Shown: piece by piece, positions 20,060 through 23,350 of the stretch
Layout: every line of letters starts with the position of its first letter
How positions within the stretch are numbered: position 1 is the stretch's first letter
IMG/VR virus record: IMGVR_UViG_2724679236_000014
Span: 1-24,587 of that record
Origin: a virus
Taxonomy: Duplodnaviria; Heunggongvirae; Uroviricota; Caudoviricetes
Direction: 5' to 3' (one strand)
DNA length: 24,587 nucleotides
Made by a program: the position numbers and the translations under genes
The notes under the pieces: model-generated
Told to the model about the DNA's origin: nothing
Database searches by the model: none
What the model saw: the letters and a program-made list of their open reading frames with translations, nothing else

Positions 20060-20602
20060 TCAAGCTATTGTTTGAGCAAATGATTCTCGCATGGGAATAT
20101 ATAGGGCATACTCAGCAACAGCCAACCAATTAGCAATTCGCTTTTCGCATGTGCTAAAACACCACTCAGGATGTGCATCATTTAGCAATTCAGCCATTTT
20201 GCGCTTAGTCATCCCCCGTCCTTCATACCGTTGCCGGAGGACACTAATCAATCCAGGATGCTCTGCCAGCACCTCACTTATGACTCGATCAATACATAAC
20301 GCCTCTGCATCAGTACAATGCGCCAACCAGGTCTTTTGCTTGCCATTGATCATCTCTCGCAAAAACGCTTCCAGCTCAGGTTTCTCTATTCCCGCTTTTT
20401 TCATCCTGCGCAGGGCTTCATTGACGGCTGTTTTCGTCAATTTTTTGGATGCCAGCAACTGGTTAAACATATTTCCCATCTTACCGCCGCCAATATACGA
20501 CCAGCGCCCCCACATGCGCAGTTTTCCCTGAATCCAGACACTTTCCAGCGTGGTGAGACGAAGGTGTTCCCCACTTTTGCCTGTATTTGTTGGGTAAATC
20601 AT
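20060..20602 (-). CDS. Late-gene antiterminator Q-like protein (180 aa)
   Basis: Position immediately upstream of a terminator and the lysis cassette, as in lambdoid phages; size and Cys/His content fit the Q family; overlaps the upstream nin-region gene by 4 nt. Confidence 0.6.
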   Translation of the reverse strand: MIYPTNTGKSGEHLRLTTLESVWIQGKLRMWGRWSYIGGGKMGNMFNQLLASKKLTKTAVNEALRRMKKAGIEKPELEAFLREMINGKQKTWLAHCTDAEALCIDRVISEVLAEHPGLISVLRQRYEGRGMTKRKMAELLNDAHPEWCFSTCEKRIANWLAVAEYALYIPMRESFAQTIA

Positions 20603-20889
20603 AAATAACCTTCCTTTCTCCAGATTTCTTGTGTGCGAAAAACACCTTCTGCATGCATCAGGCGCAATTCTTCTTTGGTGTAATCACTGGTTTTTACCCG
20701 CCCGTCGATTAAATCGTGGCACGAGCTACAGGCAATCGCTGCCTGCATATCGTGTGGCTTTATCGCTGTTCCGCACGTTCCCGCCAGTCGGTAATGCGCC
20801 AGCACGGATGTTTCGGGATTGTGATTGCAGTAGCCAGGAATTCTGACTGTACACATCTGACCTTTTGCCGCTTTACGTAAATCCACCAT
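20599..20889 (-). CDS. Nin-region Cys-rich protein (96 aa), possibly YbcO/DUF1364-like
   Basis: Supplied ORF; several Cys/His residues (CTVRIPGYCNHN...CSSCHD) suggest Zn binding; position upstream of Q. Confidence 0.45.
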   Translation of the reverse strand: MVDLRKAAKGQMCTVRIPGYCNHNPETSVLAHYRLAGTCGTAIKPHDMQAAIACSSCHDLIDGRVKTSDYTKEELRLMHAEGVFRTQEIWRKEGYL

Positions 20890-21488
20890 TACGCAAACTC
20901 CAGCAGCTGCGCGGCCACATTTTCGACTTCCTCCAGAGAGGAGAATTTACGGAACAGGATCCAGTTCCACAGGACGTTAAGTACGGCTTTATAAACCTGT
21001 TGAAATTCAGTTTCGTCCATATTCGCAAAAGCAATGGACTTCGCCCGACGCCCGCGGCTACCGTCTGGATAAAAATGCTCGGTGTAGAAGCCGGCCTGAA
21101 TGGTCACCCACTCGCGGAAAGCGTCAAATGATTTGAGCAATGCCATATCCTGGGTTCTGCGTGTCGCAACGGTATTCAGATATTGTTCCGCGGCATCACT
21201 CAGAGCTGGCGTATGTTCCCTGCCTACTGATTCACACAGGTAATCAACGAAGCCGAACACCATTTCTCGTTCGCGAGGTGTGATCGCCCCGCCGATCGGA
21301 GTCCAGTAATCGAATCCGAGTTGCAGAAGTTTGAAAAAACGCTTGTGAAATGCATAGTTACGCACACGCTTAAAATCAGCATGTATCCACTCGCCTATTT
21401 TGATTTGATGCAGAAAATCGCAACTCTCCGGTGTCGCCGGGAGCAGTAAGCCGGAAGATGTTTGTTTAACCAGTTGTATATGCGCCAT
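20889..21488 (-). CDS. Nin-region protein of unknown function (199 aa)
   Basis: Supplied ORF, translationally coupled to the downstream gene (start/stop overlap). Confidence 0.45.
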   Translation of the reverse strand: MAHIQLVKQTSSGLLLPATPESCDFLHQIKIGEWIHADFKRVRNYAFHKRFFKLLQLGFDYWTPIGGAITPREREMVFGFVDYLCESVGREHTPALSDAAEQYLNTVATRRTQDMALLKSFDAFREWVTIQAGFYTEHFYPDGSRGRRAKSIAFANMDETEFQQVYKAVLNVLWNWILFRKFSSLEEVENVAAQLLEFA

Positions 21489-21559
21489 CGTAGTTCTCCG
21501 CTGGCGCAGTAGAATGGGTGTTCAGCCCGTTGTGTAGTATACCAGAATCAATGCCAATA

Positions 21560-21772
21560 CTAACAGGATGCCCTGACTCGCAATTCATCTGGCAATCTAT
21601 CATTTCCCATAATATCACTATTCCTCATCGGTAAAAAAATTGCCTTGCGGCCATTCCGATACATCATTGCTTTTTGTGTATCAGGGAAATAATCCATTTC
21701 AACAATAACTGACAGATCATCACAACGTATGACTGCAAATTTAGTGCTAAAAGATTCCTGTGATTTTTTCAC
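21560..21772 (-). CDS. Hypothetical small protein (70 aa, GTG start)
   Basis: GTG start preceded by GGAGG with a 5-nt spacer; sits between an AT-rich region and the nin genes. Confidence 0.4.
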   Translation of the reverse strand: MKKSQESFSTKFAVIRCDDLSVIVEMDYFPDTQKAMMYRNGRKAIFLPMRNSDIMGNDRLPDELRVRASC

Positions 21773-21954
21773 GATGCCTCCAAGCCTCTAAGGAAAGAGG
21801 TTTATATCTACCTGGAGGCAAAAATATATATACACAGAATGTTTATTTCATGTTGTATATTTGATTGTTTAATGTGCAGGTGCAATGACTTTTATTTATT
21901 GCCGCGCATATAATCAAATATGTGATCATCTTTCATCCTTCGTATTCGACATAC

Positions 21955-21980
21955 AATAAAAAAACCCGCCGAAGCGGGTT
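21955..21980 (-). terminator. Intrinsic terminator at the 3' end of the hok-like gene
   Basis: aacccgc-cgaa-gcgggtt hairpin (21963-21980) followed on the minus strand by an 8-nt U-rich run. Confidence 0.5.
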
Positions 21981-22048
21981 AGGTGCGGGTGCGTTGAGGA
22001 TGCCTGACACATCAGAGGTGGCGAGGGATTTCTCCCTCGCCTGGTCTC

Positions 22049-22204
22049 TTACTCCTCAGGTTCGTAAGCTGTGAAGACAGCGACCTCCGTCTGCCCGGTT
22101 CGGATTCGTACCTCGCAGAGATCTTTCCTCGTTACCAGTGCCGTCACTACGACGGTAATACAGATGACGATCAGGGCGATTAACATCGCCTTTTGCTGCT
22201 TCAT
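22049..22204 (-). CDS. hokD: Hok-family type I toxin, HokD/RelF-like (51 aa); absent from the ORF track because it is short
   Basis: Manual translation of the minus strand gives [51 protein letters not shown]: one TM helix plus a periplasmic tail, matching E. coli HokD as remembered. Confidence 0.8.
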
Positions 22205-22627
22205 AGCCTGATTCTCCTGTTTGAGTTCATTTCCGGCGTGAATGTTACTGAATCCCCGATCATCTATCGTGACGAGACTATGCGCACCGCCTGCTCTCCC
22301 GATGGTTTATGCAGTGACGGTAACGGCCTTGAACTGAAATGCCCGTTTACCTCCCGGGATTTCATGAAGTTCCGGCTCGGTGGTTTCGGGGCCATAAAGT
22401 CGGCTTACATGTCCCAGGTGCAGTACAGCATGTGGGTGACGCAAAAAGATGCCTGGTACTTTGCCAACTATGACCCGCGTATGAAGCGTGAAGGCCTGCA
22501 TTATGTCGTGGTTGAGCGGGATGAAAAGTACATGGCGAGTTTTGACGAGATGGTGCCAGAATTCATCGAAAAAATGGACGAGGCACTGGCTGAAATTGGT
22601 TTTGTATTTGGGGAGCAATGGAAATGA
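22193..22627 (+). pseudogene. exo: 5'-truncated lambda exonuclease (exo / Red-alpha) remnant; homology covers about the C-terminal 135 aa
   Basis: [55 protein letters not shown]...[11 protein letters not shown] closely matches the lambda Exo C-terminus as remembered; the N-terminal ~90 residues are missing and the track start is a TTG inside hok antisense sequence. Confidence 0.85.
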
Positions 22628-22854
22628 GCGCAGCCACAAAGCTCACAGGAGAAAAACCAGAGCGATACACAAAAGTCAAACCATGTCCGTTTTGTGGTTG
22701 TCCATCTGTAACGGTGAAAGCCATTTCAGGGTATTACCGGGCAAAATGCAACGGATGCGAATCCCGAACTGGCTATGGTGGAAGTGAGAAAGAAGCCCTC
22801 GAAAGATGGAATAAACGAACCGCTGAAAATATTAATGGAGGCATCTATGTATAA
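22618..22854 (+). CDS. Zinc-ribbon protein, Lar-like restriction alleviation family candidate (78 aa)
   Basis: KPCPFCGC...CNGC motif and small size; start overlaps the exo stop; this position in the recombination/int arm matches lar in Rac. Confidence 0.45.
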
Positions 22855-23035
22855 AATTACCGCCACAATTGAAAAGGAAGGTGGTACTCCTACTAACTGG
22901 ACAAGATATTCAAAATCTAAACTAACGAAATCAGAATGCGAAAAAATGCTCTCAGGGAAAAAAGAAGCAGGCGTTTCCAGAGAGCAAAAAGTAAAACTGA
23001 TGAATTTTAATTGCGAGAAACTTCAGTCCTGGTAA
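22847..23035 (+). CDS. Hypothetical small protein (62 aa from the internal ATG)
   Basis: GGAG lies 6 nt upstream of the ATG at 22847; overlaps the preceding gene by 8 nt. Confidence 0.35.
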   Translation: MYKITATIEKEGGTPTNWTRYSKSKLTKSECEKMLSGKKEAGVSREQKVKLMNFNCEKLQSW

Positions 23036-23134
23036 GTTGCATTGTATTCAAATTAAAACTTCATAGCTGATTATTAATAATCAACGCCGGGCGTCAATTT
23101 CTGTCTAATATTGTCGCCCGCCAGAGGTGATGCG

Positions 23135-23350
23135 ATGGCACAAGTGATCTTTAATGAAGAGTGGATGGTTGAATACGGTCTGATGCTTCGTACTGGTCTG
23201 GGGGCCAGACAAATTGAAGCATATCGCCAGAACTGTTGGGTGGAAGGTCTCCACTTCAAACGAGTATCTCCTTTAGGTAAGCCAGACAGCAAGCGAGGGA
23301 TTATCTGGTACAACTATCCGAAGATAAATCAGTTTATCAAAGACTCATAA
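23135..23350 (+). CDS. xis: Excisionase (Xis)-like protein (start placed at ATG 23135, about 71 aa)
   Basis: Small basic protein immediately upstream of int (stop TAA is 1 nt before the int ATG); GAGGTGA RBS upstream of 23135. Confidence 0.55.

Follow-up and report, generated by a model that had tools for sequence, protein, structure and literature searches.

A Rac-family prophage at ttcA of Escherichia albertii that has probably lost its early region in one recent internal deletion

Deletion of the early region relative to sister prophages

The DNA analysed here, called the window throughout, is the whole 24,587-nucleotide stretch of the IMG/VR virus record IMGVR_UViG_2724679236_000014, which very probably represents the int-proximal two thirds of a Rac-type lambdoid prophage that has undergone one recent internal deletion of ~11.3-11.5 kb and has been made defective by it. 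The host flank beyond int in the source contig (ttcA, dbpA, zntB, dgcM, smrA and others) matches the type strain of Escherichia albertii at 99.15% identity, compared with 81-87% for E. coli, Shigella and E. ruysiae, and ttcA begins 51 bp past the int stop codon; judged from this flank, the element is therefore a prophage at ttcA, the Rac attachment site, of E. albertii. Its integrase shares 97% amino acid identity with the E. coli IntR-type integrases and, together with the ttcA neighbour and an excisionase of XisR type, assigns the element to the Rac family, an assignment further backed by the RalR/RalA pair and the rcbA-like gene beside xis. The RecE/RecT recombination module of this family was not found in the window, which carries only a remnant of a lambda-type exo (YqaJ), and neither were the Rac-type immunity (racR/ydaS/ydaT) and replication (ydaU/ydaV) genes, which are present in sister prophages at the deleted position.

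These sisters were gathered by lookup of the exact DUF1367 and Xis proteins. On the late side, window 1-22218 aligns with 297-22513 of the metagenome scaffold ERZ28602687 scaffold_2 at 99.914% identity (18 substitutions and one 1-nt intergenic indel), and on the int side window 22216-24587 aligns with 33811-36182 of the same scaffold at 99.747%, the 11,300 bp lying between both aligned segments of the sister being missing from the window. Comparison with JAQALO010000001.1 gave 99.72% on the late side, 99.83% on the int side and 11,458 missing bp, with a hok segment that is 100% identical, whereas 11.6 kb are missing with respect to E. coli OkiPb01695 and 11.9 kb with respect to the deposited phage vB_EcoS-666R9; the junction endpoint is identical in every comparator. 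Of the 19 differences from ERZ28602687 scaffold_2, nine are concentrated in the hok segment (21952-22159), where most sisters differ from the window in this way. A recombination patch at the junction was considered for this cluster and rejected, since the allele is shared at 100% with the intact sister JAQALO010000001.1 (L014), and on this comparison the differences are read as allelic mosaicism and not as damage.

The junction itself (22216-22218) reads, on the + strand, CATAGCCTGATTCT[CCT]GTTTGAGTTCATT, where the bracketed bases (AGG on the - strand) are common to both parental flanks and filler DNA amounts to zero. The deletion spans from exo codon ~90 to 14 nt upstream of the hokD ATG. According to the Pfam calls of the sisters, the losses on the exo side comprise the first ~90 exo codons, a RecT-family Bet, Gam and a RecE N-terminal fragment; the missing segment further encodes in the sisters a 91-aa (amino acid) racC-like protein, YdaE, KilR, SieB and DUF1391, an HTH_3 repressor of 129-139 aa, a divergent 80-aa helix-turn-helix (HTH) protein (cro-like), YdaT in the cII position, a 260-aa O-position protein, a DnaC/IstB-like protein, DUF1627, DUF977 and small open reading frames (ORFs), and it carries the complete sok/mok leader of hok. 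With repressor, cro/cII-position, O-like and DnaC-like genes all in this segment, the element has lost indispensable modules, which is what marks a defective prophage. An earlier note on this DNA, made from the sequence alone, had proposed a deletion or a replacement of the early region. The 11.3-11.5 kb that the sisters carry in addition support the former, and a swap for foreign DNA was ruled out because there are no extra bases at the junction.

What remains of exo (22219-22627, + strand) corresponds to ~codons 91-226 of 226, without start codon or promoter, and it covers positions 67-149 only of the Pfam YqaJ profile, in agreement with the earlier description of exo as lacking its 5' end. 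With the final 422 bp of lambda exo it shares 95.3% identity, the 3' 60% of the gene being kept, and the sisters have a full-length 226-aa exo at this position.

The same junction was found in two further assemblies: JAQAMX010000014.1 is 100% identical to window 13352-24587, and the complete chromosome CP117678.1 matches window 13134-24587 (11.45 kb) at 99.991%, in both cases with the junction included; in CP117678.1 the element is located around 837,863-858,078. The exact integrase protein occurs in only three assemblies, and the deletion is counted in three, namely the two just named, to which the alignment over the junction applies, and BBVS01000013.1. An exact 40-mer over the junction gave 0 matches among one genome per species, and in the E. 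coli complete genomes no single place accounted for 80% or more of a 1,241-nt query that includes it.

Gene calls in 20060-24587 were made by ORF listing and by Pfam, PHROGs, NCBIfam and Rfam searches, and they uphold the picture given earlier of an int arm running directly into hokD, nin-type genes and Q, with no bet, gam, N, cI, cro, O or P in between: among the ORFs of at least 30 aa in this interval, family searches detected no signatures of repressor, Cro, cII, N, O, P, Bet or Gam. From the late side, the - strand encodes a Q-like late antiterminator of the DUF1133 family (20060-20602; Pfam DUF1133 1.1e-108, a weak Phage_antitermQ match, and PHROG 753, 'anti-termination protein Q-like', 1.2e-79), a YbcO/DUF1364 nuclease in nin position (20599-20889; Pfam YbcO 3.1e-45; PHROG 131, HNH endonuclease), and a NinB/Orf-like DUF1367 protein (20889-21488; Pfam 9.8e-97; PHROG 319, NinB/Orf) of which identical copies occur in sister prophages with intact early regions. 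These are followed by a 70-aa ORF at the rem position of Qin/Rac (21560-21772, - strand; PHROG 1813, phrog_1813, 5.6e-31, without Pfam match), which is called as a gene in the sisters, an AT-rich spacer (21773-21958), the 3' untranslated region of the hok mRNA (21959-22048, - strand) with its intrinsic terminator (21980-21963), and the hokD toxin ORF (22049-22204, - strand; Pfam HOK_GEF 9.4e-24). An isrK-like Rfam match of 31 bits was discarded as a terminator look-alike, being below the gathering score and found at the same place in intact hok loci.

Beyond the exo remnant, the + strand encodes ralR (22624-22854), a Lar-family type I toxin (NCBIfam RalR equivalog 144.5 bits, cutoff 113; Pfam Lar_restr_allev), opposed by the RalA antitoxin small RNA (22853-23031, - strand; Rfam RF02694, 209 bits over the full length, gathering score 170). 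What had been called a Lar-like gene thus belongs to the Lar family and is, more specifically, the RalR toxin with its antitoxin. An rcbA/ydaC-like DUF1187 protein (22847-23035, +; Pfam 1.7e-37; NCBIfam PRK09750), the XisR-type excisionase (23135-23350, +; Pfam DUF1233, putative excisionase), whose exact protein recurs in many E. albertii ttcA prophages, and the IntR-type tyrosine integrase (23352-24587, +; Pfam Arm-DNA-bind_2 and Phage_integrase) complete the arm. To the right of int, where the earlier note had advised looking for a displaced immunity region, ttcA follows after the 51 bp already mentioned, as at the Rac site.

Formation of the junction and the truncated hok locus

On its hok side, the deletion stops directly 5' of the Shine-Dalgarno sequence of hok (AGGAGAA). 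This is also the nucleotide at which, in the two sisters L009 and L018, hok borders on a 1,095-bp insertion sequence (IS; 8171-9277 in L018) that encodes an rve-type transposase and has duplicated 6 bp of its target, AGGAGA. The exo flank, read on the hok-sense strand, is TGAACTCAAACAGG, and the right end of the IS plus the first three target bases is TGAACTTACACAGG; the two agree at 12/14 positions, the 5 bases at the crossover being exact. A scan of both strands of 45 kb from the sisters (90 kb) with this IS-end 14-mer gave no more than two sites matching at 12/14, of which the exo endpoint is one. A 99.9% identical copy of the IS also lies at the junction of another early-region deletion, in CP045690.1. 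This statistical link to the IS end suggests how the deletion formed, and we consider it rather probable that it arose through short imperfect repeats in an IS-bearing ancestor. Such an ancestor would have carried the 1,095-bp IS inserted at the hok Shine-Dalgarno sequence, and recombination between the 14-nt imperfect repeats, one in exo and the other formed by the IS end plus target, would have removed the IS together with the early region.

Several points weigh against this account as a whole. No IS-bearing sister was found with the hok allele of the window or with a lambda-Red-type arm, both IS-bearing sisters having a full-length recE (recET-type arm) and a different hok allele, so that the proposed ancestor is hypothetical. 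The part of the prophage left of gpM is unread for this clone and for CP117678.1, the evidence covers the element itself, with the rest of the genome outside the search for helper prophages, and all functional consequences discussed below (for Q, the late genes, a silent hok, and excision and replication) are drawn from lambda-type logic. Lastly, the ancestor could have been free of the IS and have undergone illegitimate recombination at CCT/AGG, a microhomology of 3 nt, which we regard as possible though somewhat doubtful. The closest sisters (L010 and L014) are without IS and the 3-nt overlap is directly visible; moreover, 69 IMG/VR contigs, like Qin of E. coli K-12, have their relE/hokD boundary at the same nucleotide. 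On this view, the deletion and the IS would coincide because the base of a conserved hairpin (GCCGAAAGGC), which lies just upstream of the hok Shine-Dalgarno sequence and is common to 116/119 intact loci, is prone to breakage, and we hold this view of the coincidence to be equally doubtful. Illegitimate recombination of this kind leaves unexplained, however, the 12/14 match of the exo flank to the IS terminus, given the two such matches in the 90 kb scanned.

Among the IMG/VR contigs, only three kinds of sequence are found 5' of AGGAGAA, namely the intact hairpin, the relE spacer and the IS. Breakpoints just 5' of the hok Shine-Dalgarno sequence were seen in three independent contexts, the exo remnant (window 22205-22218), the relE spacer (L124, K-12 Qin, 4276-4291) and the IS (L018), and all three hok-side breakpoints read ACAGG at the joint.

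The deletion has left hokD with its Shine-Dalgarno sequence, coding frame and 3' end, while sok, mok and the promoter are gone and homology to every intact hok locus ends 14 nt before the ATG. In the sister, sok (RF01794) scores 119 bits and ends at the hok ATG; in the window no Rfam match to sok was obtained at E ≤ 0.1. Of the components of a hok/sok locus, the Hok toxin ORF was thus found, and the Sok RNA, the mok frame and the 5' leader were not. Since promoter and mok are lost, the sok-less hokD should be silent unless it is read through from upstream. By the same kind of reasoning, loss of the repressor alone or of sok alone would be lethal, whereas a loss that also takes pL/pR, replication and the hok promoter would be viable.

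Expression, age and possible dependence on other prophages

By lambdoid-phage logic, an element without repressor, pL/pR, O/P-type replication and recombination genes would be defective. With neither repressor nor pL/pR there would be nothing to induce or derepress, and replication would not be expected because the O-like and DnaC-like genes are lost. Both int and xis are intact, yet pL and the cII-position activator would be missing. Similarly, Q would have lost its pR-driven transcription and is positioned behind the hok terminator (21980-21963), and for want of this transcription the late operon would stay behind terminators unless Q is supplied in trans. The earlier note had spoken of a defective or dependent element: its first term is sustained, in so far as the loss of early genes with respect to the sisters predicts it, and the second, as an adapted form of life, is highly unlikely, as argued below. 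Trans-activation by the Q of a co-resident prophage, or rescue by recombination, would nonetheless be possible in principle.

The same note had held that late expression would need a promoter either in the AT-rich region 21780-21960 or supplied in trans. A substitute promoter in this region is not supported, as the spacer is native to the hok-to-nin module (the same or 99% identical in the sisters that bear an early region), and promoter matches are no commoner than in shuffled sequence (10 matches in 18900-23400 against 9.2 +/- 3.4). The spacer contains a sigma-70-like site with 9/12 consensus positions (21851-21823, - strand), from which the rem-position ORF and the nin-Q block may be transcribed; only near-identical copies were available for comparison, and these have no power to reveal conserved -35/-10 boxes. 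The usual pR'-tR' layout of lambdoid phages places the late promoter downstream of Q. A candidate for it, TTGATT-17-TTTAAT, was recognized by eye just past the Q stop codon (20062-20034, - strand), with a GC-rich hairpin and T-run, likewise found by eye, as putative terminator ~60 nt further on (19972-19945, - strand); the region (19945-20062) is unchanged in the intact sisters, and more terminator-like hairpins lie ahead of the holin gene. Given this pR'-tR'-like layout, the late genes should need Q.

It is tempting to speculate, as a long shot, on a combined reading in which the deletions that make lambdoid prophages cryptic, including the one at the Qin relBE-hokD boundary, would generally be anchored at the IS-prone nucleotide just before the hok Shine-Dalgarno sequence, and in which the element has stayed Q-responsive, so that induction of a co-resident prophage with a DUF1133-type Q would fire the late operon in situ. 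If this were true, a headful (pac-type) terminase would start at the pac site within the integrated element and package chromosomal DNA outward, in a lateral-transduction or gene transfer agent (GTA)-like transfer of the flank distal to ttcA.

The late ORFs have the same length as in the sisters, with no frameshift with respect to a sister. Two assemblies that are 99.99-100% identical to the window over the junction, together with 18 substitutions in 22 kb with respect to an intact sister, indicate that the deletion is recent and probably confined to one clone, and the integrity of the late genes would follow from this youth, selection for their retention being unneeded. The opposite view, that of an adapted helper-dependent parasite, satellite-like or GTA-like, which would use int/xis, Q and the late operon whenever a co-resident lambdoid prophage helps by supplying Q, replication or derepression, is highly unlikely. 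It would accommodate the open int, xis, Q, lysis, head and tail-shaft genes, and the two more independent early-region deletions at the same E. albertii locus. Defective lambdoid prophages of E. coli O157 Sakai were moreover reported to be induced, packaged and transferred via inter-prophage interactions (Asadulghani et al. 2009, PMC2669165). Against it stand the restriction of the deletion to three assemblies, two of them nearly or fully identical to the window, a divergence from the intact sisters so small that it leaves no time for selection or decay, and the differing gene sets taken by the other two deletions, one of which also takes Q. Nor does the element show any of the hallmarks of a satellite, that is, an own replicon, genes for capsid-size redirection or a helper-sensing repressor. 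It differs from the phage satellites of the PICI (phage-inducible chromosomal island) or P4-like kind in having no replication or regulator genes and in retaining terminase, portal, head and tail-shaft genes, and from a gene transfer agent in that its architecture is found in three assemblies only and int/xis are kept.

Even less likely is that the immunity and replication module has moved elsewhere in the prophage, to the left of the window past the tail genes. This idea draws on the unread left part of the element, with attR, the tail tip and the fibres: the window begins at the end of contig BBVS01000013.1, 71 nt into gpL, and lookups with the tape measure, gpM and YdaY proteins returned neither CP117678.1 nor any contig of this clone that runs beyond gpL. 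Window 1-22218 is, however, collinear with the intact sister save for the 1-nt indel, so that there is no insertion within the window, the leftward genes of the relatives are only gpL, K, I, J and lom, and at the junction the loss is clean, without any scar of a rearrangement. An assembly artefact, two prophages collapsed in a short-read assembly, could be suspected in a draft whose contig breaks inside repeated tail genes, and is dismissed as scarcely credible because independent assemblies, one of them a complete chromosome, carry the same junction (100% and 99.991%) and no repeat beyond 3 nt exists there.

Other features of the window and relation to known systems

The left end of the window is occupied by gpM (72-404) and the adjoining tape measure protein (397-3606), and no tail fibre genes, announced at this side by the earlier note, are present in the window; gpL, K, I, J and lom form the leftward continuation in relatives. 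Its statement that the lysis and morphogenesis modules are complete and apparently intact applies to the lysis, head and tail-shaft genes, open as far as gpM, and what follows gpM is outside the window.

The large terminase subunit, TerL (12009-14324, - strand; 771 aa), contains a 336-aa intein at 13227-14234, inserted in the Walker A motif (AGFG/C...HHN/SGKT), whereas L015 and L111 have a 435-aa allele that lacks it. In its sense frame the central portion of the intein contains no domain; an ORF on the opposite strand (13214-14209, +) codes for a conserved HTH+HNH_3 endonuclease, of which 389 homologues (45-93% identity) were counted. Acinetobacter vivianii (L121) and Pseudomonas (L122) show the same nesting on the opposite strand, again with an open sense frame; a literature search on inteins with an opposite-strand homing endonuclease gene retrieved nothing relevant. 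Upstream of the terminase genes (15584-17297, - strand) are encoded a ParB_N-domain protein, the N-terminal part of which matches the PADLOC 'type II methyltransferase' model with 129 bits, and a TET-associated glycosyltransferase (TAGT); both may constitute a DNA-modification pair. The interval between Q and the holin gene, the usual site of cargo genes such as stx, contains a DUF2441 gene (19168-19707, +) and a 69-aa ORF (19723-19932, -); PADLOC returned no match for these two or for the 70-aa ORF at the rem position.

Lookup of the exact Xis protein returned ten distinct architectures, 7 with a full early region and 3, that of the window among them, with differing losses. In CP045690.1 (L020, 6466-9462) an IS-marked deletion extends from recT to beyond Q, thereby also removing nin and hok, and in BBVG01000005.1 (L022, 4424-8397) a deletion has brought DUF551 up against the C-terminal portion of recE. 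On these sequence comparisons, E. albertii has repeatedly lost the early region at the ttcA locus. In the Red-type arms of several sisters (~5766-9493 in L023, L021 and L024; 16640-20409 in L008) a RecE N-terminal fragment (~660 aa, Exonuc_VIII) abuts gam-bet-exo, as though a lambda Red module had taken the place of recT and the C-terminal part of recE in these sisters; other sisters keep the full recE-recT.

Internal deletions that ground prophages are textbook events and the element is of a known kind. The present case is an unusually clean example, with both flanks known at 99.7-99.9% identity and the junction resolved to 3 nt, and, along with the two other deletions, it shows how quickly E. 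albertii disarms its ttcA prophages. It also carries a warning for annotation, in that a prophage with 'complete late genes' is not to be scored as intact or inducible.

The closest known systems are the cryptic Rac prophage of E. coli K-12 and the inducible Rac-like phages Rac-SA53, vB_EcoS-666R9 and their relatives, which occupy the same ttcA site and share the same arm of IntR, XisR, rcbA-like gene and RalR-RalA; vB_EcoS-666R9 is 94.8% identical in nucleotides to window 22672-24587. Rac-like phages also have the same block of Q (DUF1133), YbcO, DUF1367 and hok, with head and tail genes at ~91% identity. The Rac prophage of K-12 has kept its early region (recET, kilR, sieB, racR, ydaS/T/U/V) and lost most late genes, so that the window element, with late genes kept and early genes lost, is its mirror image. 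The recombination module of the element, as judged by the exo remnant, was of lambda Red type and not recET as in Rac. The E. coli Rac-like phages have trkG between the ParB-like and the lysis genes; the corresponding part of the window (17341-18135) has no trkG and a different Rz/Rz1 region.

In the Qin prophage of E. coli K-12, hokD is severed from sok/mok at the same nucleotide, directly 5' of AGGAGAA, and the order from hokD through the rem-position ORF and the nin-position genes to Q is shared. The upstream partner differs, being relBE, which supplies a promoter, in Qin, and the antisense of the exo remnant in the window; in Qin, moreover, Q is of another kind (ydfT) and most late genes are gone.

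The prophage pool of E. coli O157 Sakai also includes members with deletions or IS insertions in essential regions, in a host rich in related prophages, and IS-associated damage is common to both cases. Activity was measured there, whereas the window element is known from sequence alone.

A precedent for the event itself is provided by the classical cryptic lambda lysogens of the 1960s-70s, in which immunity was lost by deletion of the early region and late markers could still be rescued, and which include the IS2-promoted 'crypticogen' deletions. Phage, host, IS and endpoints are different, and the IS is not retained in the window element. The pattern of an IS-anchored deletion of the early region, with late genes kept but silent, is nevertheless the one that we propose here for the ttcA prophage of E. 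albertii.

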